Shown piece by piece: positions 4,181-23,716 of a stretch of DNA of 64,000 bases. The position numbers and the translations under genes were made by a program. The notes under the pieces are model-generated. The model was given only the letters and a program-made list of their open reading frames with translations, had not been told where the DNA came from and did no database searches. Each line of letters begins with the position of its first letter. The first letter of the stretch is position 1. The stretch is from a virus. Location of the stretch: IMG/VR virus record IMGVR_UViG_3300049460_000157, positions 10,741-74,740 of that record. One strand, given 5' to 3'.

Positions 4181-4278
4181 GGTGAGCCTCAAACAGGTCT
4201 CACTGGGTCACGGAAGTTACCAGGATGATACGTGAATGCAGGCTACTCCTCCAGATTTAGTCTGGGGAATTGTTGCTT

Positions 4279-6341: not shown

Positions 6342-6354
6342 ATTGGCCTCTTGG

Positions 6355-6378
6355 AAAAAAGCCCCCTGTCACGGGGGC
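6355..6378 (-). terminator. Rho-independent terminator
   Basis: Minus strand GCCCCC-GTGACA-GGGGGC followed by TTTTTT. Confidence 0.75.
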
Positions 6379-6384
6379 CGATGA

Positions 6385-6540
6385 TTACGAAGGCGTACCG
6401 GCAGGTTCCTGTGCCACCGGGACTTCGGGATCCAGCACAGTGCGGCTGGAGTGGTTGTTCAGATGCGGATTGACTGCCTCGAACTCGACGAACGTGGATA
6501 CCTTCCAGTCCGAGGTCACAACCGGTTTGATGTCTGCCAT
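6385..6540 (-). CDS. small hypothetical protein (51 aa, not in ORF track)
   Basis: MADIKPVVTSDWKVSTFVEFEAVNPHLNNHSSRTVLDPEVPVAQEPAGTPS; AGGA RBS; fills the gap and ends just before the terminator. Confidence 0.55.
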   Translation of the reverse strand: MADIKPVVTSDWKVSTFVEFEAVNPHLNNHSSRTVLDPEVPVAQEPAGTPS

Positions 6541-6595
6541 ATGGGTTTCCTGGTTCAGACCGGACCACCCGAAGGCGGCCCGGCTTGCTGTGTGG

Positions 6596-8425: not shown

Positions 8426-8426
8426 A

Positions 8427-9128
8427 TCAGATCCATCCATTTTTTTCGAAACGTTTGCCTGTGGTTGAGATACTGGTACTCACCAGATCCTGTTGAATAA
8501 CTTCGGCACAGATGTTCTCGAAGGCAGTCTCGTGCGTACCTGCAATGCCCATTGACTCTTGCGTGTTCATCTGTCCAAAGGTTCTGGCTGCGATCCATGC
8601 CCGGAGGGCAGGAACGAGTACATCCGGCAGCTCGATCTCCTGGGTGAGGTCATCGAGGATGAGCTGGGGATGCTTTGCCTGATACATGACGCTCAGGGCA
8701 ACGCCCGTCTTCGGACGGGGCACCTGCAGCACATTGCCCTGCGTGAAAACGGAGTGCGGGTTGTCGTCGTCATTCAGCGGCAACAGCACGCCGTAGCTGT
8801 TGAAGACATTGAGGATGCGGATCGCGTCTTCCTCGAATGGCTCGAGCGGCAGATCCCGGATGTAGAGGACCGTCTGCGTCGAGGTATCCGCCTGCGACTG
8901 GGCGAACTTCTTCAGCAGGTGGTAACTGGTGATCCAGTCCACCAGATCGATGAGGACATCGTTCTGCTTCAGGATGAAACGGGTGTAGAGCTTGAGCAGC
9001 CCGTCATTGGCAAAACGGATCACCCGCTCCTTGCCGGCGTCCGTAATGGTGCCGTCTCCGTCATTGGCGAGGGCGAGGCTCGACAACTCTCCGAAGGAGA
9101 GGTCAGTAAACAGCTGTTCGATATTCAT
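8427..9128 (-). CDS. virion structural / head-tail adaptor protein (N4 gp67-like)
   Basis: LSFGELS, GLLKLYTRF, YQAKHP and RFEKNGWI motifs; position right after the terminase. Confidence 0.8.
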   Translation of the reverse strand: MNIEQLFTDLSFGELSSLALANDGDGTITDAGKERVIRFANDGLLKLYTRFILKQNDVLIDLVDWITSYHLLKKFAQSQADTSTQTVLYIRDLPLEPFEEDAIRILNVFNSYGVLLPLNDDDNPHSVFTQGNVLQVPRPKTGVALSVMYQAKHPQLILDDLTQEIELPDVLVPALRAWIAARTFGQMNTQESMGIAGTHETAFENICAEVIQQDLVSTSISTTGKRFEKNGWI

Positions 9129-9135
9129 CTCAACC

Positions 9136-10725
9136 TCACACGATGTAGGAAGACAGTCCGCTTGGGTCTGACTCCCGATGCTCTTCCTCGTAGATCTGAA
9201 CTTCAGACGGCGTAGCAGGGGCGCTGTCGCTGGGGCGCCAGGGCTTGAGGAATCCGAGCATCGAGATGGTGTCGATGAAGTCGTCCTTGCCTTTGATGCC
9301 CGACGATGTGACCAGCTTGATCTGGCCCATTGCGATGCCCATGATGACGCTGTGCTTCATCTCATCCGGGAAGTAGAACTTACCGGCCTTGAACCAAGGA
9401 ACTACAAGATTGAAGCGGGAGAGCTTGTCGGTGATTGGGCGTATACCAGGGGTTCCACTCTTCTCCGACGACGCGAAGTTGAACCAGACATTCCGGTTCA
9501 TCATCTCGGTCTGGAGCCAGGAAATGAAGCCACCCTGCTGTCCCGTGATCTCGATGCCTACCTGCTGGGGTTTATATAGTTGTACCAGGCGAAACAGGTC
9601 GTTGACTGTCTTGTCCATCTTCTGACGTTCACAGATACCGTCAACCCAGAACCAGTCGCCATTGGAATTGTAAGCCCAAACACTGATGACAGAGTAGTCA
9701 GCTGTCTGTTTTTCGGACGTTGCGAAGTCTGTGGTGATATAGAAATTAAAACTGTTGCGGTTCTCCAAAAGATTGGTCCGCTTGTACCACCGGATCTCGT
9801 CGTCCTGGACCAGTCGTTCTTCCTCCGAACTGATACGCAGCATCAGTTCCTGCATGAATCCGGAGACTTTCCCGGTCAGCACCGCCATGTCGTACTGCTC
9901 TTTGACGTACTTGTAGCTGAAGCGATCCTCCCAGGCGCCGACGAAATCCGCCTCCTCGCACGGGAAACGCTCGCAGACCGGCCACACGTTCACGTCCCAG
10001 GCGCCCGATTCGACTGCCTCGATCAGGATGTCTTCCTTGTTGAACGGCGTGCCGTTGAAGACGACCTTGCGGCGTGTCGGATCCAGTGCGTGATTCACAC
10101 CCTTGTAGACCGTGTCCTTGATGGCGACCATCGCCGCCTTGGACTTCGAGTCGTCATCACTCACCAGGTCATCGAGCACCGCCACGACCGGCCGCTTGCC
10201 GAAGATCTTCGTCCCACGCAGGCCCGTCTTCGCACCGAACATCTTGATGCCGATGCGGTGCCCTTCCCGGTTCTGGAACTCTATGTAGTTGTCCGTGAAG
10301 GAGGCGTGCGGAATCCACTCCTGCAGGAACTCAGAGTTGTTGTACCGGAACTCAATGTTCTTTCGGGCAGACTTAACGCCGTTGTCCATTGAGTCAGATA
10401 CATAGATCATCCCCTCAACCTTACCGAAGCCTGGGATGTATCCGAACATACCGAGGAACAGTGAAAAATACTCCATGAACAAAGTAGTTTTCGCTGCACC
10501 CCGGAAGCAGAGGTTCGCAATATAGTCAGACTTCGATTCAACCACCTTGTCGAGCATCTTCAGATGCACTGGTGGGGTCTTGTGGGATTCGCCCTGCTCT
10601 CCATTCGCCAACTTGATAAAGTTCATGAAGGTCAGGGCAAACACACTTGGCGTGTAACTCGGTGCATTCAGGTCTTTGTAACTGACCTGATCGAGCCACG
10701 CATCCAGCTCCTGTTTGATGAGCAT
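9136..10725 (-). CDS. terL: terminase large subunit (N4 gp68-like)
   Basis: Walker A-like CFRGAAKTT, Walker B VLDDL, coupling GTP motif, RNase H-like nuclease (TDFA...DYS, DDFIDTISML). Confidence 0.95.
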   Translation of the reverse strand: MLIKQELDAWLDQVSYKDLNAPSYTPSVFALTFMNFIKLANGEQGESHKTPPVHLKMLDKVVESKSDYIANLCFRGAAKTTLFMEYFSLFLGMFGYIPGFGKVEGMIYVSDSMDNGVKSARKNIEFRYNNSEFLQEWIPHASFTDNYIEFQNREGHRIGIKMFGAKTGLRGTKIFGKRPVVAVLDDLVSDDDSKSKAAMVAIKDTVYKGVNHALDPTRRKVVFNGTPFNKEDILIEAVESGAWDVNVWPVCERFPCEEADFVGAWEDRFSYKYVKEQYDMAVLTGKVSGFMQELMLRISSEEERLVQDDEIRWYKRTNLLENRNSFNFYITTDFATSEKQTADYSVISVWAYNSNGDWFWVDGICERQKMDKTVNDLFRLVQLYKPQQVGIEITGQQGGFISWLQTEMMNRNVWFNFASSEKSGTPGIRPITDKLSRFNLVVPWFKAGKFYFPDEMKHSVIMGIAMGQIKLVTSSGIKGKDDFIDTISMLGFLKPWRPSDSAPATPSEVQIYEEEHRESDPSGLSSYIV

Positions 10726-11402
10726 CAGATTTCTTTGGCCTCCACATCAATGATCCGTTGACCGGCGATCTCTTTCGCCGTCACACCGGAGAGAATCAGG
10801 TTGCGTTGCTGTTCGGCCAGTTTCCCGAGCATGTCCTTCATCTCGGTCATGCCACTGGACTCCTTCATGTCGATGTTGATCAGCGGGCCGGCTTCCTTCG
10901 GCTTGGCCAGGTGCGTGAGGATCGAGTTGGCTGCGTCCGTGCGCACCTTCTCCGACACCGCCTCGACCATCAGCTTGGCCTGCACGTTCAGGGCTTTCTG
11001 GTACAGATCCTGGTTGAGCACCCAGCTCGGCACGAGCGACTGTTCCAGGATCAGGTTGACGAGCTTGCCCTTGGCGTACGCGGACACGTACGCGGAGATG
11101 TCCTTCTCGCTGGTTCCCTTGGCCATCAGGTTGGCCATGCGGCTCGGGAACGTCTTGAAGTAGGCGTCCTTGTTCGAGTCGCCCATCAGCTTGTAGCTGA
11201 CGAAGGCCACCGCGTGGACGTAGTCCTCGGTCTTGAACTTGCCGTCCTTCAGCACCGCGGTGTAGCTGATGAAGTTGTTGCGCACCTGCTCGGCAATCAG
11301 CGGATCGGCGGCGATGTTGTTCACCAGATCCACCAGCTGCGGCGTGATCGCACTCTTCAGGTTCGCGGGTACCGCCCGCTCGACGATTTCTTTGGTTAGC
11401 AC
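10725..11402 (-). CDS. N4 gp69-like protein (putative terminase small subunit)
   Basis: RNNFISYTAVL, AVAFVSYKLMG, AANSILTHL motifs; adjacent to terL. Confidence 0.8.
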   Translation of the reverse strand: MLTKEIVERAVPANLKSAITPQLVDLVNNIAADPLIAEQVRNNFISYTAVLKDGKFKTEDYVHAVAFVSYKLMGDSNKDAYFKTFPSRMANLMAKGTSEKDISAYVSAYAKGKLVNLILEQSLVPSWVLNQDLYQKALNVQAKLMVEAVSEKVRTDAANSILTHLAKPKEAGPLINIDMKESSGMTEMKDMLGKLAEQQRNLILSGVTAKEIAGQRIIDVEAKEI

Positions 11403-11467
11403 TTCTTCTTCCCCGTTAACTGGCGAGGGGCACCGGAGTGCCCCACGTTTTCAGCCTGTCGTTACTG

Positions 11468-12283
11468 TCAGGCGGCTGCCTTGAACTTCGCCGCTTCCTT
11501 CTCTTCCGCCCGCTTGAGCCGGCGCTGCAGGTACCAGAGGTAATCCTCCATGCCACCCGACTGCTTGAGCAGCTCGCGCCGCTCGATGTCCGGCAGTGCC
11601 TCGTAGTCCGGCGTCAGCAGGAAGGTCTTCAGCTTGGTGAGGCGCTCGCCCAGTTCTTCGGCCTCGACCTTCATGCGCTCGATGAAAGTCGTCTTGCGGG
11701 GTTCGGCGCCGACCGTGTAGGCCTTCTCGAATACATCCCTGGGTGACCAGGAGATGTAGCCGGCAAAGCCTTCGACGTTCGGCTTGCCGCCGTCCGTGTA
11801 CTCGACGAGGTAGCCCGGCGTTTCCGGATCCTCGTTCTCGGGGATCGTCCAGCCGCGCACGGCGTTGTAGGTGCCCAGGTTCATCGGCACGCCGCGGACC
11901 ACCTTGGTGCCGACATACGTCAGCGGACGGGAGCCAAGGAGGGAAACGATCGCTCCGGTTGCCGGCCCTGCCCGGTCGATCAGCTCCAGCTTGCGGGCCA
12001 GCTCGAAACCGAGCAGCGGCCAGATCTGACCGACCGCATCCTTCTTCGCCAGCTCGCGCCCGATGTCCGGGTTGAAGTTTTCCTTGCTCACGCAGCTCGA
12101 CTTGCCGACCGAGCTGAAGCGGCCACCGGCCATCGACAGCTGGGCAATCGTGGTCGTGCCATCCTGGAGCAGCGTGTAGCTCTCGTCCTGGATCGCGGCC
12201 ATGACCTGTTCAAGGGTCACGCGGGGAGCAACGGCAGCGGCCGCCAGTTGTGCTTCGGTGATAGGTGCATGCGGTGCATTCAT
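11468..12283 (-). CDS. three-domain fusion: N4 Gp49/Sf6 gp66-family domain + SWSP-motif domain + crAss001_48-like helical domain (candidate anti-defence protein)
   Basis: APRVT...G.SSCVSKENFNPDIGRELA...IWPLLGF; YVGTK...GYLVEY.DG...YISWSPRDVFEKAY; ERMKVEAEEL.ERL.KL..FL...M..YL..L.RR. Confidence 0.7.
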   Translation of the reverse strand: MNAPHAPITEAQLAAAAVAPRVTLEQVMAAIQDESYTLLQDGTTTIAQLSMAGGRFSSVGKSSCVSKENFNPDIGRELAKKDAVGQIWPLLGFELARKLELIDRAGPATGAIVSLLGSRPLTYVGTKVVRGVPMNLGTYNAVRGWTIPENEDPETPGYLVEYTDGGKPNVEGFAGYISWSPRDVFEKAYTVGAEPRKTTFIERMKVEAEELGERLTKLKTFLLTPDYEALPDIERRELLKQSGGMEDYLWYLQRRLKRAEEKEAAKFKAAA

Positions 12284-12480
12284 CTTGCTGGTCCCTTTTC
12301 TGTTCGGTAGTCCACAAATAGACTGAATATAGTTTAGAGTCTATTTAGATAATAGTCTATACTTCCTCAAACAAATCTCTATTCCATATGGGAATGGGAG
12401 GGCGTCAGCTATGGCTGCTTCGCAACAGGAAGGGGAAAAACAGAAAAACCGAGAAAAATCTTTCCACCAAGTTACCTTGG

Positions 12481-12489
12481 TGTTAACCT
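12481..12489 (+). promoter_or_regulatory. extended -10 promoter candidate for the ncRNA
   Basis: TG-T-TAACCT about 7 nt upstream of the first hairpin of a structured, terminator-bounded region. Confidence 0.45.
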
Positions 12490-12495
12490 GGCTTT

Positions 12496-12714
12496 GCGTT
12501 TCCTTCCGAAAGCGGAAACGTGGTTGATGGGCTGGTGATGTGGCCTTCGTCTTGACCCCAGTGGAGAGTGGGGCTAATAACTTCCACAGTTGAGGCTGTC
12601 AGACTCCTTCACACCTTCGGGTGTGCGCTTCACGACAAGTGACTCAACCCGGTGTCTGTATCGGTCAAGCAGAGGAAAGCCGAGAACACCCCCGCATGTG
12701 TTCTCGGCTTTTTT
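12496..12714 (+). ncRNA. putative ~220-nt structured non-coding RNA
   Basis: Nested stems (GCGTTTCC/GGAAACGT, CTTGACC/GGTCAAG, GTTGAG/CTCAAC, CACAC-cUUCGg-GTGTG) ending in a strong terminator; no credible ORF. Confidence 0.6.
12676..12714 (+). terminator. Rho-independent terminator
   Basis: AAAGCCGAGAACAC / GTGTTCTCGGCTTT perfect 14-bp stem plus T-run. Confidence 0.85.
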
Positions 12715-12829
12715 GTGTCTACGACCTCTAAGTTATATCTAAGCGGCCGCTCACCTTCCACTGAAGACCTGTTCTGTCTGGCTCAGGACAGACAGTTAGT
12801 TGCATCACTGGAGCCAAGGGAAAGAAGGA

Positions 12830-13072
12830 TCAGCCGGCATCAGCATTAACCCGGCTCACCAGCACCTGGATCTGGGCTGCGTCTCCCTCAGTCTGATAGC
12901 CCATGGTCAGCATTTCCCAGTACATCTGCACGCCCAGGGCCATGCCCTTGAGCAACCGGATCGTGTACTCGTCCGTCTCCTTATCCGCCTGGTCCGCATA
13001 GCGCCTGAGCTGCTTCTCAGTCGCCGCGGTGATCTCTTCGTAAGTCCACATCCTGACGCTCTGGATACTCAT
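12830..13072 (-). CDS. hypothetical protein
   Basis: 80 aa, GGAGG RBS, phage-like codon usage. Confidence 0.65.
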   Translation of the reverse strand: MSIQSVRMWTYEEITAATEKQLRRYADQADKETDEYTIRLLKGMALGVQMYWEMLTMGYQTEGDAAQIQVLVSRVNADAG

Positions 13073-13079
13073 ACGACCT

Positions 13080-13262
13080 CCTAGTTATGTCGCGTATAGG
13101 GTAAAATTTCGCCCAAATTTTTTGGGGAAAGGGTTCGGCAGAAAGTGATAGGTACGTCTCACTGCAGGGTTGGGCCTCTGGCCCTACACCTTACACATAC
13201 ACTACCCCCCCGGTCATTCCGGGATGGTGGGATCTAGGTGCCACCCCTTGTTATCACGCATA
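13080..13262. other. probable genome end / terminal-repeat region
   Basis: Non-coding strand-switch zone between the terminase block and the first vRNAP promoter, with homopolymer runs (TTTTTTGGGG, ACTACCCCCCCGGT); N4-like genomes end here. Confidence 0.55.
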
Positions 13263-13266
13263 CACG

Positions 13267-13287
13267 GGCGCTCCGCGCCTTGTGGAT
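13267..13287 (+). promoter_or_regulatory. virion-RNAP early hairpin promoter 1
   Basis: GGCGC-TCC-GCGCC-TTGTGGA; the template strand forms a 5-bp stem with C-GGA-G triloop as in N4 early promoters. Confidence 0.85.
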
Positions 13288-13323
13288 ATCCGTCCATAAC
13301 CTGTACTTACTTGGAGTTTGACC

Positions 13324-13629
13324 ATGGCAAACCTTCGTCTCACGCTCGGCGCTGTATTCGGTGCAGTTACTGGTGCTGCTGATGCAGTCACCAACACCCT
13401 CAACGCTGCCAACACTGGTGTGGCAATGCTGAGTCGTTCTGTCTCTGATGCTAGTGAGCGTCAGGTTGTACGTGCTGGCTTCGACAGCAAGGTCTTCAAG
13501 GCTACTGTCAAGCAGGAAAAGGCTAAGGAACTGACTGTGTCTCGTCTGGAGATCAAGCAGTTCATTGCTCAGTCTGCTGATCATGCAACTTTGTACGAAG
13601 CTGCGTTCAACGAACTCGAAGCTGCCTAA
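13324..13629 (+). CDS. first early gene (N4-like gp1-type protein)
   Basis: 101 aa helical protein with GGAG RBS directly after vRNAP promoter 1; T-ending codon bias. Confidence 0.7.
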   Translation: MANLRLTLGAVFGAVTGAADAVTNTLNAANTGVAMLSRSVSDASERQVVRAGFDSKVFKATVKQEKAKELTVSRLEIKQFIAQSADHATLYEAAFNELEAA

Positions 13630-13692
13630 ACGTAGGCTAAACGCTGGCCACCTCGGTGGTCAGCAAACCTACTTCGTAGATAGCTATGCGCA

Positions 13693-13724
13693 CAGTTAAC
13701 TGATAGTTGACTGTTAGTTAACTG
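13693..13724. repeat. three tandem palindromic AGTTAACT boxes (11-bp period), operator-like
   Basis: CAGTTAACTG, TAGTTGACTG, TAGTTAACTG; a further copy CAGTTAACTA at 14628. Confidence 0.6.
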
Positions 13725-13730
13725 CTACCC

Positions 13731-13783
13731 AAGGACTGATAGCTCAGGTCACTCATCCATGAGTTGAGCTTTCGGTCTTTTTT
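13731..13783 (+). terminator. long hairpin with U-tract
   Basis: AAGGACTGA/TCGGTCTTT, AGCTCA/TGAGCT and ACTCAT/ATGAGT nested stems followed by a T-run. Confidence 0.65.
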
Positions 13784-13818
13784 ATTCACCACTATTAGAT
13801 ATAAGTTTGAGGTACACC

Positions 13819-14022
13819 ATGAGCAACATCGTCAACGTGATCTGCATCCTGCTGTTCATCTTCATTGGTATCGGGTTCATCGGTTGGGGCTGTGCCCAGA
13901 TGATGTACATCGTGCCCTACTTCAATCGCTGGAGCGACCTGTTCGGGTTGCTCTTTGGCACAGCCTTCATTGGGCTGGCCTACCTGGCTTACCTGGATTC
14001 ATCCCTTCAACGCCATTTCTAG
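13819..14022 (+). CDS. small two-TM membrane protein
   Basis: 67 aa, two hydrophobic helices, GAGG RBS. Confidence 0.65.
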   Translation: MSNIVNVICILLFIFIGIGFIGWGCAQMMYIVPYFNRWSDLFGLLFGTAFIGLAYLAYLDSSLQRHF

Positions 14023-14032
14023 GAGGCCATTC

Positions 14033-14365
14033 ATGGCTGCTACTGCTCAGGAAATATTCCAGTTCCCGACACCGCCAACACTCATTGGCCAGCTTCGGGT
14101 GGACTGTGAGAAGTTGCTCGAACGTACCCGTGAAGCCCTGCTGGAAGCACGGGATGAAACGGATGTGCGCTGGATCCGTGATGCTGCGATCCGCTCGCTC
14201 AAGGACATCTTCAAGGATGTTCCGACATTCAATGATCCATATGTCCTGCTCAAGCTAGACACGCTCGAGCTCGTCGACAGCGAATGCGCCATAGGTCACT
14301 GCAATGCCCTGATCCGCACACGCAAGTGGCGCAAGGCATTGATTACACGCTACTTCGGAGTCTGA
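14033..14365 (+). CDS. hypothetical early protein
   Basis: Start MAATAQEIF with AGGAGG RBS. Confidence 0.65.
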   Translation: MAATAQEIFQFPTPPTLIGQLRVDCEKLLERTREALLEARDETDVRWIRDAAIRSLKDIFKDVPTFNDPYVLLKLDTLELVDSECAIGHCNALIRTRKWRKALITRYFGV

Positions 14366-14367
14366 GC

Positions 14368-14553
14368 ATGCAGGTCTACACCTCGGCATTCGTGCAAGGG
14401 ATGCTCGACGCACGCACGGAGTTCGATCTGCGTGTGCGTGATCCGGAAAACAAAACAGTGGTCTGTCCGTTCGATCCGTCCACCGAGTCACAGCAATGGG
14501 ACTACTGGTGGGAGGGCTACAACGCTCACCGTGATCCCAAGATCGTCACCTGA
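14368..14553 (+). CDS. hypothetical early protein
   Basis: 61 aa with AFVQG..DA...CPF...W..WWEGY motif; GGAG RBS. Confidence 0.6.
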   Translation: MQVYTSAFVQGMLDARTEFDLRVRDPENKTVVCPFDPSTESQQWDYWWEGYNAHRDPKIVT

Positions 14554-14570
14554 TTTCAACACGTAGTTGT

Positions 14571-14589
14571 GCCGCTCCGCGGCTTTTGG
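14571..14589 (+). promoter_or_regulatory. virion-RNAP early hairpin promoter 2
   Basis: GCCGC-TCC-GCGGC-TTTTGG, matching the N4 stem/GGA-loop/TTTTGG layout. Confidence 0.88.
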
Positions 14590-14661
14590 TTGGGGTCTCA
14601 GATCGAGACCCAATTTCTACTCTCTCTCAGTTAACTAGACATATCTTTGGAGTAATACATC

Positions 14662-15075
14662 ATGGGCGTCAATTTCGAAGCAAAAGATTTCGCAACCACG
14701 TTCGGCGCAAACAAGAACAAGTCGTCGGCCGCGGCCAATCAGGACCGTCCGAAGTCGGAGTTCTGGCTGAACATCGGCTACGTGGCCGAGGGTGCAGGCA
14801 AGGACGGTGACGACGCATTCGTGTCGCTGCCGGTCGGCATCCCGCTGGACACGCAGGAAAAGCTCAAGACCAACTCCAGCAATGCGGAGTTCGCCCAGCT
14901 TCAGGCTGCACGCAACGACCTGCTGGATCAGCTGCTGGAGTTCGCCAAGACGCTGAAGCCCGGCCAGGACGAGGTCTTCAACATCCAGGTGCAGATCCGT
15001 CGCATCAAGGAAGACACGCCGGTCAGCGTCGGTGAGGACAACAAGTTCGCACGCAAGCTGGCGTTTGCAGCGTAA
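14662..15075 (+). CDS. ssDNA-binding RNAP II transcription cofactor (N4 gp2 / Drc-like)
   Basis: KSEFWLNIGY...FVSLPVGIPLD...ARNDLLDQL...LKPG...QIRRI motifs; directly after an early promoter. Confidence 0.85.
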   Translation: MGVNFEAKDFATTFGANKNKSSAAANQDRPKSEFWLNIGYVAEGAGKDGDDAFVSLPVGIPLDTQEKLKTNSSNAEFAQLQAARNDLLDQLLEFAKTLKPGQDEVFNIQVQIRRIKEDTPVSVGEDNKFARKLAFAA

Positions 15076-15090
15076 ACACAACGTCAGGTC

Positions 15091-15128
15091 AGGAGGAGTG
15101 TGGCTATAATGCCACGCTCTTCCTATTT
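15091..15128 (+). terminator. hairpin/terminator after gp2
   Basis: AGGAGGAGTGTGGC / GCCACGCTCTTCCT 14-bp stem followed by ATTT. Confidence 0.6.
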
Positions 15129-15206
15129 AACTCTAATTGGATAGTCAGCTATCTAAAACCTAAGTTGGATAGGCAGGAGCATTTCGACGAAGACAACCTA
15201 AAGGAT

Positions 15207-15536
15207 ATGACTGTGAAGAAGCTGCTGATTTCGATGCTCGTTTTGCTGCCCCTGACTGCTCACGCAGATCTGGTCGCTTACACCACCAATGAGAGCAACG
15301 GACGCATCGAACTGCTGGACTCCACAGTCCCGGCGAGTCTCTGGAACATCCCTGGATGCATCAAGGCTCACGTCGCCCATGTCTGGGGCGATGGGATCGA
15401 TGACATCTACGGATGCTGGATTGCTTCCAGTGACACGGTCACGGTCACCTATCCGGGCGTCGGTCAGCGTACCTACGCAAGGACCAGATTTACGTTCAAA
15501 ACCCACCCTACCCCAACCAGCAAGGAAACGATGTGA
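15207..15536 (+). CDS. exported protein with signal peptide
   Basis: MTVKKLLISMLVLLPLTAHA-D signal peptide; Cys pair. Confidence 0.65.
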   Translation: MTVKKLLISMLVLLPLTAHADLVAYTTNESNGRIELLDSTVPASLWNIPGCIKAHVAHVWGDGIDDIYGCWIASSDTVTVTYPGVGQRTYARTRFTFKTHPTPTSKETM

Positions 15537-16072
15537 TTAACAAGAAGCTCAGCTACGCCGGCATTGGGCCGCGCAACACACCGCTCGAGGTGTGTGAGCA
15601 GATGGTGCATGTGGCGAAACAGATGGACGAGCAGGGCTGGATTGTCAGATCCGGCCACGCACAGGGCGCCGACCAGGCATGGGCCTGTGGTCATGCGCCT
15701 GAGAACCGTGAGATCTATCTGCCGTGGCACAGCTTCAACATCGTGGGTGAGCTGCCAGCCGGATTCCAGGTGAGTCCGGTCACACCGCAGCTCGAGGCCG
15801 TGGCCCGAGTTGCCCATCGTGGCTGGGACAATCTCAGACAGGGTGGCCAGAAACTGATGATGAGAAACGTCTCGATCATCCTCGGCCACAACCTGGACGA
15901 TCCGGTCCAGTTCGTGGCGTACTGGTCACCGCAGCGCAAGGTTCAGGGCGGCACAGGTAACGCTGTGCATCTCGCATCACTCTATGGCATCCCGAGTTTC
16001 AACATCGCGTTCGAAGAAGACCAGCAGGGCATGTCCTCATTCGTCGACTCGTTGCACGAAGGATGCACATGA
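15533..16072 (+). CDS. SLOG/DprA-like nucleotide-binding protein
   Basis: YAGIGPR, RSGHAQGAD, EIYLPW, RN..IILG, GGTGNAV.LA...IP.FN motifs. Confidence 0.75.
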   Translation: MINKKLSYAGIGPRNTPLEVCEQMVHVAKQMDEQGWIVRSGHAQGADQAWACGHAPENREIYLPWHSFNIVGELPAGFQVSPVTPQLEAVARVAHRGWDNLRQGGQKLMMRNVSIILGHNLDDPVQFVAYWSPQRKVQGGTGNAVHLASLYGIPSFNIAFEEDQQGMSSFVDSLHEGCT

Positions 16073-16103
16073 CGTAATCAATAAAAAAGCAGGAGAGCGG
16101 CCG

Positions 16104-16415
16104 ATGTCCAATCCGAGCCCCAAGGAAGTGCTGGAAGTATTGCGAATGTCCGAAGAACAGATGATGAAGGTTGACATCATCACCCTGTACCAGGCGTTTT
16201 ACGCGTTGCCTACCCACTATCCGCTGGCCATGTGCAATGCACAGACCGGTAAAGGGTTCGAGAAGCTGAACGAAGTTGAGCGCTCCATCGCAACACGTAT
16301 CGTGAAAGCCGTGCAACACCGCTGTCCCATGCCGAAGGTTGAACGCTGGAAGAAGTTCGAAGCGCCTGCGGCGAATGACTCAGCACCGCCAAAGCTGCGC
16401 ATCACGCATCACTAG
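16104..16415 (+). CDS. hypothetical protein
   Basis: Start MSNPSPKE with AGGAGA RBS. Confidence 0.6.
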   Translation: MSNPSPKEVLEVLRMSEEQMMKVDIITLYQAFYALPTHYPLAMCNAQTGKGFEKLNEVERSIATRIVKAVQHRCPMPKVERWKKFEAPAANDSAPPKLRITHH

Positions 16416-16464
16416 AACAATCAGATCTTGCCCTTAGTGTCACGTCATCAATAAGGACTACTAC

Positions 16465-16656
16465 GTGAAGAACTACCAGCAGACACCGAAGCAACGCCGG
16501 ATCCAGAAGAAGAAACTGGAGCTGAGCAAGCGTGCGGCCGCACATTGCAAGCCGCACTTCACTCCGCGGGAAAGCTGGACTTCGCGCAAGAAGGTGGGCG
16601 GTGTGCCGATGGCCATCCTCGACCACAAACAGCACGTTTATCACGGCTGGTGGTGA
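16465..16656 (+). CDS. small basic hypothetical protein
   Basis: GTG start with AAGGA RBS, 63 aa. Confidence 0.5.
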   Translation: MKNYQQTPKQRRIQKKKLELSKRAAAHCKPHFTPRESWTSRKKVGGVPMAILDHKQHVYHGWW

Positions 16657-16859
16657 GCCATGAGCCGATCACCATTCTGCGAATGCGATGGCTCGTTCGG
16701 TCACGAGTGTGGCGTCTGCATCACTGAGCGTCAGGACGCTGAAGCCGAGCGTCGATGGAATTAGCACAATCCCATCCACTGCATCTGCCCGGAAAGCGCT
16801 GCCTATCACACCCATGCCTGTAACCAGCAGGACTGGTCAAAGAACCAGGGACATTAGCC

Positions 16860-17146
16860 ATGGACAAGAAAGTCGCATTCGTCACCGATGTCCGCATCGT
16901 CGCATCCGATGACATCTGGCCCACAGAGTTCAGCCTGTGGGGCTTCTTCATGCTGCAAGGACTCATCGTTGTGGACTGCCCACAGGCCGCGGCGATGGCA
17001 AGAAGTTCCTGCCTGGTGAAGAGGTGCGCAGCACCAAGCTGATTCGCATGGACCCGGACAAAAACGAGTTCGAGACCATGAACACCATCTACAAGGTCGT
17101 CCCCAATGCACATGTCGATGTGTACCGGATGACCGATCCAACCTGA
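16860..17146 (+). pseudogene. frameshifted hypothetical gene
   Basis: MDKKVAFVTD...LIVVDCP continues in another frame as TGRGDGKKF.PGEEVRSTKL...ETMNTIY; one extra C at about 16980 would join them. Confidence 0.5.
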
Positions 17147-17160
17147 ACCAGGGAGCAAAG

Positions 17161-17544
17161 ATGCAATCGACGCTGCTCAGCCGCAGGGAGATCAACGATC
17201 TCTACCTCGGCAAATGTGAAATACCGGCCCAGTCCGAACTGCTCACCCAGTTCTACCGTGTGTACGCCGGCTGGCTGGTTGCAGGCGCACCGGAAGGAGT
17301 CATCTTCACCCGCTCGTCGGGACTGTGCCAGAACCTGAAGATGTACCTGCTGCAGACCGGCAAGAGCGATCGCCAGACCGTCACTGAGCTGGGGATGGAG
17401 ATGCGCAGGCAGTTCATCAACGCACGGCGCAACGATGCCTATCCGTTCGATGGCCACTCGGACAGCTACCAGCGTTCTGCTGGCGAGCGCAACTGCCACG
17501 CAAACGAAAACCGTATCAAGTGGGTGAATGAACATGCCGAATGA
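17161..17544 (+). CDS. hypothetical protein
   Basis: 127 aa, GGAG RBS, GLC.NL...YPF...RIKWV motif. Confidence 0.65.
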   Translation: MQSTLLSRREINDLYLGKCEIPAQSELLTQFYRVYAGWLVAGAPEGVIFTRSSGLCQNLKMYLLQTGKSDRQTVTELGMEMRRQFINARRNDAYPFDGHSDSYQRSAGERNCHANENRIKWVNEHAE

Positions 17545-18252: not shown

Positions 18253-18437
18253 GCAACGCAGCCATCAAAGAGGACTTCATCCTCGAATCGGCCTATGGCC
18301 ACAAGATCATGAGCTTCCCGACTGCGGAGAAAGCTCGTGAGTGGGCCGAACAGCGCCGTGAGACAGCCAAGGGTGTCATCCCGGCTGTGCGTCTGGTCAA
18401 GAAAACCGTCATCGAAGAGGAAATGGGCCATGTCTGA
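18249..18437 (+). CDS. hypothetical protein
   Basis: 62 aa from MSNAAIKE; overlaps its neighbours. Confidence 0.55.
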   Translation: MSNAAIKEDFILESAYGHKIMSFPTAEKAREWAEQRRETAKGVIPAVRLVKKTVIEEEMGHV

Positions 18438-19260
18438 TTCCGGCATTCAAGCAAAGCGTGCTGCACACCAGATCGAACTCGAGCGGCTCTTCAGCAAGAA
18501 CCAGCTCATGCAGCGGATCCGGGCCGAATTCAGCGAGTGTGCTGCGTTCGACTTCAAGGTTTATCTGAAGGAGCAGGACATCCCCGAAGACTTCGGCATC
18601 GAGCTGCTCGCCCAGATGGCGCTGCACAAGCGTGCTGACCTGCCGACCATGGTTGGCTGTCTGCGCCACCTGTGCGCCACCTCACAGGAATGTGCTGACC
18701 TGCTGCTCAAGTGTGCGATGGCGGATCTGATGGACTGGTCCCCTACCCTGCGCATCTTCGTGGTCAAATTCACGATCAGTGCTGATGTGCAGACTGACAT
18801 CGACCGGTTCCAGTATCCGCTGCCGATGGTCGTCGAGCCCAAGGAAGTGAAGTCCAACAAGCAGTCAGGCTACTTCCTGAACAACAACAGCATCATCCTG
18901 AAGAACAACCACCATGACGATGATGTGTGTCTCGACCACATCAACCGCATGAACCGTGTGAAGTTCAAAGTCAACTTCGACACGGCCAGCATGATCAAGA
19001 ACCAGTGGAGGAACCTTGACAAGCCCAAGGATGGAGAAACAACAGCGGACTTCGAACGGCGAGTACGCGCTTTCAACAAATACGACAAGACTGCTCATGA
19101 TGTCATCGGCGTACTTATTCAGCACGGAAACGAGTTCCACAGTACCCACAGGTACTGCAAACGTGGCCGGACCTATTGCCAGGGATATCACGTCAACTAC
19201 CAGGGAACAGCCTGGAACAAAGCCGTGATCGAGTTCGCGGCCGGCGAGGTGACGAGGTGA
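18430..19260 (+). CDS. RNA polymerase II subunit 1 (N4 gp15-like)
   Basis: QIELERLFSKNQ, QMALHKRA, FQYPLPMVVEP, DVCLDHIN, KRGRTYCQGYHVNYQG motifs. Confidence 0.92.
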   Translation: MSDSGIQAKRAAHQIELERLFSKNQLMQRIRAEFSECAAFDFKVYLKEQDIPEDFGIELLAQMALHKRADLPTMVGCLRHLCATSQECADLLLKCAMADLMDWSPTLRIFVVKFTISADVQTDIDRFQYPLPMVVEPKEVKSNKQSGYFLNNNSIILKNNHHDDDVCLDHINRMNRVKFKVNFDTASMIKNQWRNLDKPKDGETTADFERRVRAFNKYDKTAHDVIGVLIQHGNEFHSTHRYCKRGRTYCQGYHVNYQGTAWNKAVIEFAAGEVTR

Positions 19261-19969: not shown

Positions 19970-20069
19970 GCGGCCCGACACAGCCCTGCCCTATCCTCTG
20001 CACCTGCCGGCCCACCCGTGGTCTGGCCTGCCACATTCATTGGGGCACTCGCCCCTATGATCCGCTGAA

Positions 20070-20186
20070 CGAAACGGCAAGGAAGACTCCTTCCAATCAA
20101 CCAAGCAGTCCACCTTCCAAGTAACCAAGAAACGAGGGAGCCATCCCTCCTTCTATCCTTGGTTCCCTCCTTCACTCGCTCCTCTC
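20070..20186. repeat. centromere (parS)/operator-like tract with 4-bp periodicity upstream of parA
   Basis: aaCCaaGCagTCcaCCttCCaaGTaaCCaaGAaaCGagGGagCCatCCctCCttCTatCCttGGttCC: weak-weak/strong-strong dinucleotide alternation over about 110 bp. Confidence 0.65.
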
Positions 20187-20253
20187 TTTGAGACTTGCAT
20201 CCCTCCGGGATTGGTTTACCGTATACGGTTGAACCAACCACTCCGGAGTTCAC

Positions 20254-20898
20254 ATGAAAACAATCGTCTTCTCCTGCCTGAAGGGCGGGAGTGGCAAGAC
20301 CACGCATTCCGCACATCTGGCCGTCGCTCTTGAGGCGATGGGCAAGGGTCCGGTCGTCACCATGGACCTGGATCCGCAAGGCTCCTTCAGTGACTGGTGG
20401 AACGATCGCAAAGCCGACACACCGGTCTTCGCCATGGTCGAGGACATCAAGGCATTCCCGAAGAAACATGCAGCGCTGGTCGAGGCGGGGTTCGAGTATT
20501 GCGTGGTCGACACGCCGCCGCAGAATGCGGCCATCAACGAGGCTGCTGTCGAGGCCGCCGACCTGGTGATCATCCCGGTCAAGCACTCCCCTCACGACAT
20601 CCGGGCAGCGGTTACCACGGTTCAGCTCTGTGAGCGACTGAAGAAGAAGTTCTTCTTTCTGCTCAATGAGACCAACGGCAAGGGTGTGACGCTGGACGCC
20701 ACACGTAACCTCGCCGCCATGGGACCGGTGATCCCGCATGCGGTGCCCAAGCTCAATGGCTACTGGCAGTCGATGATCGACGGCCGCACGTTCAGGGAGA
20801 TGAACAAGGGCACCGGCGCCATCGTCGTGGAGCAGGTCGCCCAGTTTATCGTGGGCCAGTTCGAGAAGCCCGTAAAGAAGGAGAAAGCCTATGTCTAG
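20254..20898 (+). CDS. parA: ParA partition ATPase (short type Ib / ParF-like)
   Basis: Deviant Walker A KGGSGKTT, DLDPQGS, Walker B VVDTPP, ADLVIIPV; 214 aa with no N-terminal HTH. Confidence 0.93.
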   Translation: MKTIVFSCLKGGSGKTTHSAHLAVALEAMGKGPVVTMDLDPQGSFSDWWNDRKADTPVFAMVEDIKAFPKKHAALVEAGFEYCVVDTPPQNAAINEAAVEAADLVIIPVKHSPHDIRAAVTTVQLCERLKKKFFFLLNETNGKGVTLDATRNLAAMGPVIPHAVPKLNGYWQSMIDGRTFREMNKGTGAIVVEQVAQFIVGQFEKPVKKEKAYV

Positions 20899-21067
20899 GA
20901 CGCAAAGCGCAGAAATGGCACTCAATCCACAGCGCTGGACATCTGCCAGCACTAGCCCGGCAGAAAATGGCGGCTTTGTTGCCTACGGTGACTACCTCAC
21001 CCTGCGTCGCATGTACGAGGATGTGAAGGCTGAGCTCGATGTCTTGAAGGAGAAGGACCATGTCTAG
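20891..21067 (+). CDS. 58-aa ORF inserted between parA and its partner (not in ORF track)
   Basis: MSRTQSAEMALNPQRW...GGFVAYGDYLTL...KEKDHV; AAGGAG RBS; overlaps the parA stop and the partner start. Confidence 0.6.
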   Translation: MSRTQSAEMALNPQRWTSASTSPAENGGFVAYGDYLTLRRMYEDVKAELDVLKEKDHV

Positions 21068-21392
21068 GCCATCACTGGATGCGGTCATCACACGCAAGGG
21101 AGCAGCAGCGCCAGCCAGCCTTGAGGCCAAGGAACCAAGTAAGGAAGCAACCGGGGAGGTATCCAAGGAGACTTCTAACCAAGGAGCCAAGGAAGAAAGG
21201 AAGCGTGCCTGGCATCAGCCGGGGCAGGAAGAGTGGAAGAAGACCAACTACGAGATGCCGTTGCGGGTGCAGACCAAGCTCAAGGAAATGAAGAACTGGG
21301 GATACATCCCGAATGTGTACAAGTTCGTGGCCGAAGCCGTCGAGAAGGAGATCGACAAGGTCATCGCCAAGGCCGAGAAGGAGGGCTTCTGA
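21060..21392 (+). CDS. putative centromere-binding partner (ParG/ParB-like, ribbon-helix-helix)
   Basis: 110 aa, low-complexity N-tail plus C-terminal KKTNYEMP.RVQTKLKEM...FVAEAVEKEI strand-helix-helix pattern; downstream of parA. Confidence 0.7.
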   Translation: MSRPSLDAVITRKGAAAPASLEAKEPSKEATGEVSKETSNQGAKEERKRAWHQPGQEEWKKTNYEMPLRVQTKLKEMKNWGYIPNVYKFVAEAVEKEIDKVIAKAEKEGF

Positions 21393-21982
21393 TGACTGCC
21401 GTGAGTGAGGAAGAGGAACAGCAGTTTGAGCTGTTTCAGGCCGAGACGACCTGGTTCCATATCTTCAGATCCATGATGGACAGTGGCGACGCAGCCAGGA
21501 TGGGCGGCAACGCCTTCATGATCTACTGCATCATCAAGGGCCACACGAACTTCAGGACGGGCAGGGCATTCCCCTCGATCGATACCATCATCGAGAAGTC
21601 CGGCCTGTCCAAGTCTCAGGTGCTGCGCGAGCTGTCCACCCTGGAGGACATGGGCTACATCACCCGAGCCAGGGAAGGGCGCAAGAACGTCTACACGCTC
21701 AGGGAGAAGATCGGCATCAGCGATGACAAGGGCCGGCCCATAGCGGACGCTACGTGGGATTACGTGCCCGATGGCGTGAGGACCGCGGTAGCGGAGCTCA
21801 AGCACGTCATGATGACCGGCGACTTCAAAGGCGCCAAGATCATCAACATCGAGAACATGACGGTGCACTTCAACCAGGCCAACGACAGCTCGGTGCAGAT
21901 CAACATCCAGCACCTGGTCGACAATATGGATAAGCTCACACCGGAGTTGAAGGAGATTCTTCTGAGGAATCTCACGAAATAG
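21392..21982 (+). CDS. plasmid-type replication initiator (winged HTH)
   Basis: 196 aa from MTAVSEEE (TGATG coupling); AFPSIDTIIEKSGLSKSQVLRELSTLEDMGYI...NVYTL wHTH; immediately followed by iterons and DnaA boxes. Confidence 0.75.
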   Translation: MTAVSEEEEQQFELFQAETTWFHIFRSMMDSGDAARMGGNAFMIYCIIKGHTNFRTGRAFPSIDTIIEKSGLSKSQVLRELSTLEDMGYITRAREGRKNVYTLREKIGISDDKGRPIADATWDYVPDGVRTAVAELKHVMMTGDFKGAKIINIENMTVHFNQANDSSVQINIQHLVDNMDKLTPELKEILLRNLTK

Positions 21983-22180
21983 GTGTCATCCATGGCACCA
22001 ATTCAATAGGTGTCACCGGTGACACGTATCAACCGTGCGTTGTGTCCCCCATTTATAGGTGTCATCCGTGACACCCTTTACCGGGGAATAGGTGCCACCC
22101 ATGACACCCTAACGAGAAGAGATTTTAAGTTAACAATACATAAAGTTATCCACAGATTAAGTGGACTACCATGTGGATAA
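21978..22180. other. plasmid-like replication origin: 4 iterons, AT-rich segment, 2 DnaA boxes
   Basis: wATAGGTGYCAnnnnTGRCACs at 21978, 22005, 22054 and 22087; AT-rich 22120-22146; TTATCCACA 22146-22154 and TGTGGATAA 22172-22180. Confidence 0.85.
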
Positions 22181-22192
22181 CCAGGAGCGATC

Positions 22193-22441
22193 ATGAGCGA
22201 TCCGCAGGAACCGAAGAACCTTGTGCTTGAGCGACTCAACCAGGTCATGGCTGAAGTCCAGGCCATGCGTGCCGAGAACAAACAGATGCATGAGAACCTG
22301 CACGACGACATGCGGCAGATCAAGGCCCGCATGACCGCGCTCGAAAAACAGATGGCGATCACCAATGAATCGGTGGTGGCCCAGTGGGACACGTTCGACA
22401 AGCACGAGAATCGACTACGCAGTCTCGAGACACAAAGCTGA
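22193..22441 (+). CDS. small coiled-coil protein
   Basis: 82 aa heptad pattern, AGGAG RBS, between ori and terminator. Confidence 0.65.
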   Translation: MSDPQEPKNLVLERLNQVMAEVQAMRAENKQMHENLHDDMRQIKARMTALEKQMAITNESVVAQWDTFDKHENRLRSLETQS

Positions 22442-22465
22442 TCCGTCAGCCACCGCAGTACACCG

Positions 22466-22491
22466 AAAGCCGCCTTCCAGGTGGCTTTTTT
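22466..22491 (+). terminator. Rho-independent terminator closing the par/rep cassette
   Basis: AAAGCCGCCT-TCC-AGGTGGCTTT plus T-run. Confidence 0.8.
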
Positions 22492-22522
22492 CATTTCAGA
22501 ACTGAATTTCAAGGAGCCCATC

Positions 22523-23716
22523 ATGCAGAAATTCACCGGTATGCAGTACCTCCAGATCGACATCGCTTCCAACTACGGGCTGGACAAGAAGACCTGGGAC
22601 GAGCGTCTTGCCTGGTTCAAGGCCCATGAGGACTGCCTCATGGAGATGCTGGCGACCGCCGAGACGCCGGCGCTGTACTACGCAGGTGTCAAGGCCTACG
22701 AGGCAGCACTGGCAGGGCAGGCGAGTGGCTATCCGGTCTCGCTCGATGCCACGGCATCTGGCCTGCAGATCCTCGCAGCACTCACCGGCGACCGGTCGGC
22801 CGCGGAGCTGTGCAACGTGGTCAGCACCGGCTACCGTGCAGACGCCTACACCGGCGTCTACGACCGGATGCTGGTCAAGATCGGGGAGGAGGGCAAGATC
22901 AAGCGTACGGACGTGAAGCAGGCCGTGATGACGGCGCTGTACGGCTCCAAGGCTGTGCCGAAGGAGGTATTCGGTGAAGGCGTCCTTCTGGCTATGTTTT
23001 ACGACACCATGCAGGAGGTCGCACCGGCCGCCTGGGAGCTCAACGAGGCGTTCCTCGACATGTGGAACCCGGAGGCGCTCTGCAACAGCTGGGTGCTGCC
23101 GGATAACTTCCACGTCCACGTCAAGGTCATGAGCCAGGTGAAAGAGACAGTGCACTTCCTGAACGAGCCGTTCGACACGTTCCGCACGGTCAACGCACCG
23201 GTCGATGAAGGCCGGTCACTGGGTGCCAACACCATCCACTCACTGGACGGCATGATCGTGCGCGAGATGAACCGCCGCTGCAACTACGACCGCAACGTGG
23301 TCGACCGCGTCTACGCAGCGCTCGACGGCGAGGGCAACGCTGGCCTGGACGAAGACGATGCCATGGTGATGACGCTGTGGGCGCACTACAAGGAGTCGGG
23401 CTACCTGTCAGCCCGCATCCTCGATCACCTGTTTCACGACAACATCGATTTGGTTGACATCGCAACGATCCGTGAACTGCTGAATAGTCTCCCGCAGACA
23501 CCTTTCCAGATCATGACCATCCATGACTGTTTCCGCTGTCTGCCGAACTATGGCAATGATCTGCGTGAACAGTACAACCTTCAGTTGCAACTCATTGCGA
23601 AGTCTGACCTGCTTCAGTTCCTGATCCGTCAGCTGCTGCAGCGTCAGGTCAACATCAGCAAGCTCGATCCCGACCTGTGGAAGGACATTGATCAGGCCGA
23701 GTACGCACTTAGTTAA
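22523..23716 (+). CDS. RNA polymerase II subunit 2 (N4 gp16-like)
   Basis: T7-type motifs LDATASGLQ (A), R.DVKQAVMTALYGS (B), ANTIHSLDG, IHDCF (C). Confidence 0.95.
   Translation: MQKFTGMQYLQIDIASNYGLDKKTWDERLAWFKAHEDCLMEMLATAETPALYYAGVKAYEAALAGQASGYPVSLDATASGLQILAALTGDRSAAELCNVVSTGYRADAYTGVYDRMLVKIGEEGKIKRTDVKQAVMTALYGSKAVPKEVFGEGVLLAMFYDTMQEVAPAAWELNEAFLDMWNPEALCNSWVLPDNFHVHVKVMSQVKETVHFLNEPFDTFRTVNAPVDEGRSLGANTIHSLDGMIVREMNRRCNYDRNVVDRVYAALDGEGNAGLDEDDAMVMTLWAHYKESGYLSARILDHLFHDNIDLVDIATIRELLNSLPQTPFQIMTIHDCFRCLPNYGNDLREQYNLQLQLIAKSDLLQFLIRQLLQRQVNISKLDPDLWKDIDQAEYALS

Follow-up and report, generated by a model that had tools for sequence, protein, structure and literature searches.

What is a plasmid replicon, complete with partition genes, doing in the genome of an N4-like phage? 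N4-like phages (Schitoviridae) are the textbook strictly lytic podoviruses, and they depend on a virion RNA polymerase (vRNAP) delivered to the host cell by injection. The question is raised by a stretch of viral DNA of 64,000 nucleotides, referred to here as the window, which comprises bases 10741-74740 of the IMG/VR record IMGVR_UViG_3300049460_000157 (74,740 bp, rated complete by CheckV). The genome has a giant polymerase open reading frame (ORF), a two-subunit RNA polymerase II (RNAP II), N4-type replication and structural genes, and the N4 gene order, which together place it in the Schitoviridae. Between the genes for the gp15-like small subunit and the gp16-like large subunit of RNAP II lies a 2.5-kb block, at about 19970-22497, which is separated from gp15 by three small ORFs. 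This cassette encodes a ParA partition ATPase, a small partner protein, and a winged-helix initiator-like protein (Rep), followed by palindromic iterons, an AT-rich tract, DnaA boxes, a coiled-coil ORF, and a terminator. All of these elements, and their insertion between the RNAP II genes, had been listed in an initial annotation, and family matches and motif scans found them close to where it had placed them.

The initial annotation had interpreted the phage as a phage-plasmid that persists as a low-copy episome with host DnaA-dependent replication. The genome does combine a full phage gene set with plasmid replication and partition genes, without an integration module, as is characteristic of phage-plasmids. 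The episomal interpretation is also favored by the inheritance of the cassette in one slot, its conserved origin, the replacement of its Rep by a Rep_3 initiator in a relative, the existence of closed relatives, and its kinship with a plasmid, all of which is comparative support. We therefore consider it probable that the cassette lets this N4-like phage persist as an extrachromosomal prophage or a stabilized carrier state. The terms 'low-copy' and 'DnaA-dependent' are suggested by the anatomy of the cassette, and we use them as presumptive descriptions.

The cassette is not peculiar to this contig. A scan of IMG/VR with gp16 gave 16 N4-like loci, of which L033, with its gp16 match in two pieces, was excluded from the tree; gp15 is 54-83% identical across the 16 related loci, with one at 48%. 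The cassette is found between gp15 and gp16, the same slot as in the window, in L018, L028, L019, and a contig from a bacterial genome, G369:C7 (hereafter C7). The three IMG/VR carriers (contigs of 77,219, 78,537, and 77,934 bp) have ParA and the partner in the slot; two of the three also have a recognizable Rep homologue, and the third has a more divergent winged-helix Rep. By contrast, the gap between gp15 and gp16 in twelve full-length relatives is about 0.3-3 kb and contains no cassette gene, and the isolate Pseudomonas phage Arace01 has just three small ORFs there. In the gp16 tree, a branch with support of 96/98 separates the 12 cassette-less relatives from the five carriers, so that one gain or loss is enough to explain the distribution. 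The gp16 identity among carriers is 64-76%. Since it is as low as 64%, the cassette has been retained over a long divergence, and ParA is intact (212-214 aa) in all five N4-like carriers. DNA-level searches of phage and plasmid collections did not return a close cassette. An assembly chimera of phage and plasmid would be conceivable for a metagenomic contig, but it is effectively refuted by the recurrence of the same junctions in five independent assemblies, including a finished bacterial genome, and by the GC content at third codon positions of the cassette genes (0.73-0.81), which matches the rest of the phage.

The most informative carrier is C7. It came from a search of 400 Burkholderiaceae species genomes for N4 gp16, in which G369 was the one carrier. 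C7 is 79,569 bp long, is syntenic with the window genome from end to end, and has no bacterial flanks; it is a closed circle in the assembly, because joining its ends restores an intact helicase gene. The assembly to which it belongs (7.1 Mb in nine contigs of 3.0, 1.47, 1.2, and 0.9 Mb and 177, 137, 79.6, 65.8, and 54.1 kb) is a finished multi-replicon Burkholderiaceae genome. The slot of C7 contains ParA (63% identical to that of the window) and the partner, then at least five 22-bp iterons in direct orientation together with a DnaA box and the gene for a Rep_3 initiator (Rep3_N, 2.5e-35; Rep3_C, 2e-18) that is not orthologous to the Rep of the window. L019, which is close kin of C7, has a winged-helix Rep in place of Rep_3. 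Because a second plasmid-type replicon has here taken the place of the first and the partition genes are retained, the selected function appears to be plasmid-like replication.

What does the origin of the window look like? The initial annotation had counted four palindromic iterons and two perfect DnaA boxes, and both counts were reproduced, with both motifs confined to this site: the iteron motif gives 8 strand-matches in the 64 kb against 0.2 expected, and the perfect DnaA boxes number 2 against 0.22 expected. The segment at 22120-22159, with 22.5% GC, ties for the lowest 40-mer of the window and is among its three most AT-rich 40-mers. Downstream of Rep, related cassettes have first a palindromic array and then a CCTAAC.AGA block; next come AT-rich sequence containing TTAAC and a perfect TTATCCACA box. 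This order holds in four N4-like genomes besides the window and in nine non-N4 phage contigs, and the columns of the CCTAAC block are conserved across N4-like and non-N4 carriers (alignment A3). A perfect DnaA box lies within about 300 bp of the Rep/iteron origin in 14 of 14 related cassettes, whereas, among the 12 N4-like loci that lack the cassette, a single one contains a perfect box in the roughly 13 kb.

Rep has 211 homologues at E ≤ 1e-5, and Foldseek and PDB profile searches with it gave only generic winged-helix matches. The recognition helix of Rep varies together with the iteron core: SKSQVLRE is paired with GTGTCA (window and the non-N4 locus L012), SKAQVHRA with GTCTC (L006, L009, and L028), and STRQVMRE with GTGAC (L018). 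This co-variation, together with the constant DnaA box, is the pattern that would be expected if Rep binds the repeats and recruitment of DnaA is constantly required. The heptamer ACGTATC, located directly 3' of the second iteron (window 22027-22057), is constant in L006, L009, L012, L018, and L028 despite their differing cores; it may be a host-factor site or a second contact for Rep. In L012 (6710-6935), L018 (5304-5477), and L019 (5426-5611), a DnaA box occupies the gap from the Shine-Dalgarno sequence to the ATG start codon of the following ORF (TTATCCACAATG), so that a translation start overlaps the origin. The product of this ORF is small and secreted or lipoprotein-like, and the gene is a possible moron. 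Cumulative GC skew was also tried as a sign of theta replication. The detrended minimum is located within 2-3 kb of the origin in the window genome and in C7, but it has the same relative place in Arace01. Since this lytic phage shares the position and has no cassette, the minimum is a backbone trait and is uninformative.

Could this be an origin for the lytic cycle? It would then act like lambda O/ori as an early theta origin that raises the number of templates, ParA would have a role other than partition, and the phage would be strictly lytic. The four dyad-symmetric iterons beside an AT-rich tract do match the layout of lambda ori, Rep matches PHROG families labeled as phage replication initiators and O-like proteins, distant Rep homologues occur without ParA in chromosomal, probably prophage, settings, and the cassette runs in the same direction as the early and middle genes. 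However, no use in a lytic burst is known for a ParF-type ATPase accompanied by a partner and upstream repeats, and the twelve related N4-like loci and the isolate Arace01 manage without the cassette. A lytic origin also does not account for the same replicon type on a phage-free plasmid (pA29BJ2, below), the substitution of a plasmid-type Rep_3 in C7, or the recovery of relatives as separate replicons in bacterial genome assemblies. We thus regard a strictly lytic role as quite unlikely.

Table 1. Features of the cassette and of the flanking and distant phage genes, in window coordinates.
Feature	Position	Strand	Match or remark
N4 gp15-like RNAP II small subunit (left flank)	18337..19260	+	phrog_2166 'N4-like RNA polymerase' 3.5e-105
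Candidate parA upstream control/centromere-like region	19970..20253	+	imperfect CCAAGG/CCTTGG-type repeats 20078-20165; perfect palindrome ACCGTATACGGT 20218-20229
ParA, ParF-like (type Ib) partition ATPase, 214 aa	20254..20898	+	deviant Walker A KGGSGKTT; phrog_164 8.6e-34; Pfam AAA_31, MipZ, VirC1, CbiA
58-aa ORF between parA and partner gene	20891..21067	+	no family match; only in this genome
Partner protein, 110 aa	21060..21392	+	conserved N-terminal RKG.AAPA, low-complexity linker, C-terminal strand-helix-helix
Rep, winged-helix initiator-like, 196 aa	21392..21982	+	HTH_36 1.6e-12; phrog_28562 2.7e-31; phrog_270 'replication initiation protein' 5.6e-13
Four palindromic iterons GGTGWCA-N4-TGRCACC	21982-21999, 22009-22026, 22058-22075, 22091-22108		first abuts rep stop codon
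CCTAAC.AGA block and AT-rich tract (candidate DNA-unwinding element)	22109..22145		columns CCTAAC...TTAACAAT conserved
Inverted pair of perfect DnaA boxes TTATCCACA	22146-22154, 22172-22180	+, -	sole two in window
Coiled-coil ORF, 82 aa	22193..22441	+	weak coiled-coil Pfam matches; cassette end
Intrinsic terminator	22465..22497	+	11-pair stem (22465-22489) and T-run; separates cassette from gp16
N4 gp16-like RNAP II large subunit (right flank)	22505..23716	+	phrog_2051 4.3e-165; Pfam RNA_pol 2.2e-19
Giant ORF, 3366 aa	53792-63892	-	co-linear with large Arace01 ORF annotated 'RNA polymerase'; identified by this co-linearity

The partition ATPase is of the TP228 kind. ParA is small, has a deviant Walker A motif, and has no N-terminal DNA-binding domain, as in type Ib ATPases; its residues 1-203 match residues 1-205 of TP228 ParF (4dzz) over the full length in phmmer (2.4e-15), and the ParA structure 5u1g was also matched. 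A homologue of the partner follows ParA in L018, L028, L019, L012, and C7. In the AlphaFold2 model of the partner, residues 1-62 are disordered, and helices are predicted at 68-80 and 86-107 with a predicted local distance difference test (pLDDT) score of 86-90. The initial annotation had called this protein a ribbon-helix-helix (RHH) partner. The predicted strand-helix-helix fits that description, but no family match was found, no PDB or Foldseek match was significant, the ParD-like RHH hits were weak and non-significant, and the homologue in L006 is uncoupled from this type of ParA. The partner is thus a plausible candidate for a ParG-like centromere-binding protein with an RHH-compatible predicted topology. 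The 58-aa ORF that precedes it is missing from L018, L028, L012, and C7, in which the partner gene and the parA stop codon overlap. Its start (ATGTCTAGG) is a copy of the start of the partner gene, which suggests a duplication at the junction.

The tract upstream of parA, described earlier as parS-like, does contain imperfect CCAAGG/CCTTGG-type repeats and a palindrome, and these recur in relatives. L018 and L028 have an exact copy of the 12-bp palindrome ACCGTATACGGT and a nearly identical copy of the CTTGCATCCCTCC block beside it; in C7, the palindrome is degenerate. Repeats of the type (A)ACCAAGGAA/TTCCTTGG also lie upstream of parA in L018, L028, L019, C7, and L012, and CCAAGG-type repeats precede parA in all carriers of this ParA type. 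Copies of the motif elsewhere in the genome partly belong to ribosome-binding sites. A centromere distributed over the genome is not supported: RCCAAGGA occurs 18 times against 4 expected genome-wide, yet several copies are in ribosome-binding-site contexts, since they lie 5-12 nt before start codons. The linker of the partner (window 21125-21204) is itself encoded by a AACCAAGGA-type motif, the same as in the repeats upstream of parA, and the peptide SNQG/SQG/HQG is kept in the linker of five of the seven partner homologues (alignment A2). There may thus be centromere-like sites inside the partner gene.

At the other end of the cassette, the 82-aa coiled-coil ORF has homologues in the same position in L028 (67%) and L018 (38%). 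A hairpin and T-run comparable to the terminator of the window stand ahead of gp16 in L019 and C7. Just 5' of this terminator in L019 (5840-5930), there is a candidate tRNA-like sequence, GGGGATAGCTCAAAC ... CTCCGTCCACC.

Where else does the module occur? Cassettes of about 70% identity were found in two other kinds of phage, in contigs of about 45 kb with T7-type lysozyme, exonuclease, and integrase, and in contigs of about 47 kb that encode a single-subunit RNA polymerase along with a tail protein like lambda J. Both types (IMG/VR contigs L010-L014 and L007-L009, 14-47 kb) have a gene for an RNA polymerase of their own or for the lysozyme that regulates it. The module is also present on a plasmid, the 104-kb pA29BJ2 of Polaromonas sp. 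(NZ_MN657148.1), which encodes a ParA-like ATPase, a 110-aa ORF, and a 199-aa helix-turn-helix (HTH) Rep (35% identical). After this triad come palindromic iterons and an AT-rich tract, together with two perfect DnaA boxes and a third that has one mismatch; the boxes include an inverted pair. The plasmid carries catabolic, toxin-antitoxin, and restriction/defense genes; no phage genes and no other annotated initiator were found on it, in a collection whose gene table is incomplete. Phages and plasmids share this replicon type, with one winged-helix Rep, palindromic iterons, and DnaA boxes, and it appears to be experimentally uncharacterized. Judged from the sequences, the plasmid-type module is marked by the combination of Rep, ParA, and DnaA box.

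Such mobility raises the question of whether the cassette is a selfish mini-replicon that inserted into an ancestral N4-like genome and brings no benefit to the phage. Cassettes of about 70% identity in unrelated phage backbones do indicate a mobile module, and the Rep of the window is closer to the Reps of those non-N4 phages (about 70%) than to those of N4-like L018 and L028 (59%). But the cassette has no transposase or integrase, and its position is fixed and its ORFs intact across gp16 divergence to 64%. Furthermore, the replacement of Rep and origin while ParA is kept points to selection for function in a genome whose length is limited by head-full packaging or the capsid. Mere hitch-hiking is therefore very unlikely in our view.

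If the cassette supports an episomal state, relatives should be found in bacterial cultures. The initial annotation had proposed searching bacterial assemblies for circular N4-like contigs with the cassette. Searches gave C7 (closed, 79.6 kb, ParA kept and Rep_3 swapped in), contigs of about 77 kb from Caballeronia and Paraburkholderia, and an Acinetobacter plasmid. The nearest named homologues of Rep (81-85% identical) are on contigs of Caballeronia sp. LZ034LL (77,218 bp) and Paraburkholderia sp. SIMBA_054 (77,653 bp) and SIMBA_049 (76,468 bp). For LZ034LL and SIMBA_049, a gp16 homologue is on a contig of exactly the same size as the Rep contig, the two being linked solely by this size match and the source name. 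Because these nearest Reps are from Caballeronia and Paraburkholderia, the host of the phage in the window is probably a member of the Burkholderiaceae.

The Acinetobacter element is pRBH2-3 of A. baumannii RBH2 (NZ_CP110465.1; circular, 75,126 bp), the sole record in the plasmid collection with an N4 gp16. It is a whole N4-like genome, with the gp56 capsid protein, a 3646-aa polymerase, RNAP II, DNA polymerase, and primase, and its ParA, small ORF, and HTH Rep follow the gene order of the window, at 33-40% identity. A phage record, vB_IME_Ab2712 (OK149216.1), is 99-99.5% identical to it over the 16.7 kb compared, which makes this the sole case with both phage and plasmid records. The gp16 of pRBH2-3 is 36% identical to that of the window, and its cassette does not separate the RNAP II genes but lies in an accessory island with divergent orientation. 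Since the N4-like lineage is distant and the site is different, the Acinetobacter cassette was acquired independently. Beside ParA and Rep, this island (4215-17476, L015) contains a serine recombinase, possibly a multimer resolvase, an amidase, and an Ltp-family lipoprotein, and there is a DeoR-type regulator after gp16. Ltp proteins are superinfection-exclusion proteins of temperate phages.

These contigs of about 77-80 kb might instead come from virions or lysing cells in a chronic productive infection, with the cassette present but no stable plasmid state. Terminally repeated N4-like phages assemble as circles, and pseudolysogeny of N4-like phages is mentioned in one article (Zheng et al., 2023, mSystems, PMC10654107). 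But chronic infection leaves unexplained why culture-derived elements have par and rep genes and why the module is conserved and swapped, and elements of this kind are present in at least four separate Burkholderiaceae assemblies and one from Acinetobacter. We consider chronic infection a distinctly improbable explanation of the cassette.

The proposed mechanism of episomal persistence is as follows. The injected, terminally redundant N4-like genome would circularize, and dimers of the winged-helix Rep would bind the four palindromic iterons. Rep and host DnaA, at the adjacent boxes, would then open the AT-rich tract, and the host replisome would copy the circle in theta mode. The ParF-like ParA and the partner, bound to CCAAGG-type repeats near parA, would partition the copies at cell division. 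The phage would thus persist without an integrase, its own DNA polymerase, helicase, and primase being reserved for the lytic cycle, and the terminator would shield the RNAP II large-subunit gene from transcription of the cassette. The anatomy, its conservation, and the closed relatives in assemblies are observed; the biochemical steps, the number of copies, and how the phage changes from latency to lysis are what we infer.

Several observations weigh against an episomal state. The source genome is a metagenomic assembly. Its 'direct terminal repeat' is an exact 127-bp overlap of window 63874-64000 with bases 1-127 of the contig, in the region of the vRNAP gene, and it is probably an assembler k-mer overlap from a circular assembly, which says nothing about topology or ends. 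Closed contigs could stem from virions in chronically infected cultures, as noted above. A sigma-70 consensus promoter scan of the cassette gave none, although expression would have to be independent of the phage polymerases. Outside their cores, Rep and the partner were modeled with low confidence, and structural searches gave no significant match for either; the role of the partner is made ambiguous by L006, in which its homologue adjoins Rep after a different ParA pair. Distant Rep homologues are found in Burkholderia, Pseudomonas, and Stutzerimonas chromosomes, probably as prophage initiators; because these have neither ParA nor a DnaA box, the Rep family serves phages as well as plasmids and is not plasmid-specific. 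Finally, the element is rare, with carriers in one of 69 and none of 213 species genomes of two Burkholderiaceae genera and no further ones found.

How might latency be maintained? A search of the whole 74.7-kb genome for a tyrosine integrase, serine recombinase/resolvase, protelomerase, and HTH_3 (Cro/CI-type HTH) found none, which extends to the full genome the earlier observation that the window has no integrase or protelomerase. Ten early-region ORFs that were checked contain no regulator domain. It is conceivable, though unlikely, that a Burkholderiaceae clade of N4-like phages and, independently, an Acinetobacter one are temperate phage-plasmids that dispense with a CI-type repressor. 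Their early promoters would be read only by the virion RNA polymerase, and after its loss the episome would be silent except for par and rep, read by the host and insulated by the terminator. Induction would occur when the host drove re-expression of vRNAP or RNAP II. Silencing without a repressor had been put forward in the initial annotation; the support for this idea is negative, in that no recognizable repressor was found, and a further difficulty for persistence is that it leaves unexplained how a fresh infection that delivers vRNAP would be aborted.

The genome has its own replication genes, as stated in the initial annotation for the polymerase and primase, namely DNA polymerase, Dda-like helicase, primase, and exonuclease, and also rIIA and rIIB. 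By gp16, the closest isolates are N4-like and infect Pseudomonas, Erwinia, and Rhizobium (60-62% identity). A change of coding strand at about window 12.3-13.7 kb makes this region a likelier place for the physical termini.

Departures from a strictly lytic life have been described for this family, with integrated N4-like proviruses and integrase-bearing N4-like genomes (PMC10654107). That article gives evidence that some Schitoviridae are not strictly lytic; its cases are based on integration, integrase, transposase, or diversity-generating retroelement (DGR) genes, whereas the window lacks an integrase and any persistence would be that of an episome. Neither 'plasmid' nor 'partition' occurs in its text, and our literature searches found no paper that describes N4-like phage-plasmids. 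Phage-plasmids as such are well known, and the new part would be an N4-like member that carries a plasmid replicon and partition genes. If this is correct, phage-plasmids gain a new phage family, and the question arises of how a lytic cascade started by an injected polymerase stays silent. An N4-like lineage that persists as a plasmid would also change safety assumptions, since N4-like phages are favored for phage therapy as strictly lytic. The question is directly testable, because strains with these elements are already recorded as cultured or clinical isolates (Caballeronia sp. LZ034LL, the Paraburkholderia SIMBA strains, and A. baumannii RBH2).

How does the cassette compare with known systems? 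In lambda O/ori, dyad iterons and an AT-rich tract are inside the initiator gene, a P-type helicase loader is used, and there are no DnaA boxes. The window shares the dyad iterons and the AT-rich tract, but its origin is 3' of rep, with no adjacent helicase-loader gene and with conserved DnaA boxes. Classical Rep_3 theta replicons (pPS10, F, R6K, pSC101, and P1 oriR) similarly have an AT-rich tract and DnaA boxes beside their iterons; by contrast, the Rep of the window matches HTH_36 only, and its repeats are 7-4-7 palindromes of irregular spacing instead of tandem direct iterons. The partition genes resemble TP228 ParF/ParG/parH in the ParA of about 210 aa without an N-terminal HTH, the downstream partner with a flexible N-terminus and a predicted strand-helix-helix, and the upstream repeats. 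They differ in that the partner has no detectable sequence similarity or significant structural similarity to ParG, and the candidate centromere is proposed from the repeats. The closest counterpart as a whole element is pRBH2-3, also a complete N4-like genome (vRNAP, gp56, RNAP II, and DNA polymerase) with ParA, a small ORF, and an HTH Rep, although its cassette island, unlike that of the window, includes a serine recombinase and an Ltp-like lipoprotein.

Among phage-plasmids, P1 has RepA and oriR iterons with DnaA boxes together with ParAB-parS, N15 is another, and the extrachromosomal Cluster A mycobacteriophages have parABS in place of an integrase. The window differs from all of these in its N4-like backbone and in having no recognizable immunity repressor. 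It differs from the P1 type in its single winged-helix Rep with palindromic iterons, where P1 has a Rep_3/RepA protein with direct iterons, and in its ParF-like type Ib partition, where that of P1 is type Ia. Like P1, N15, and the Cluster A phages, it unites a whole tailed-phage genome with a plasmid-type origin with DnaA boxes and a partition ATPase with its partner, has no integrase, and has relatives that are recovered as separate replicons in host genomes.

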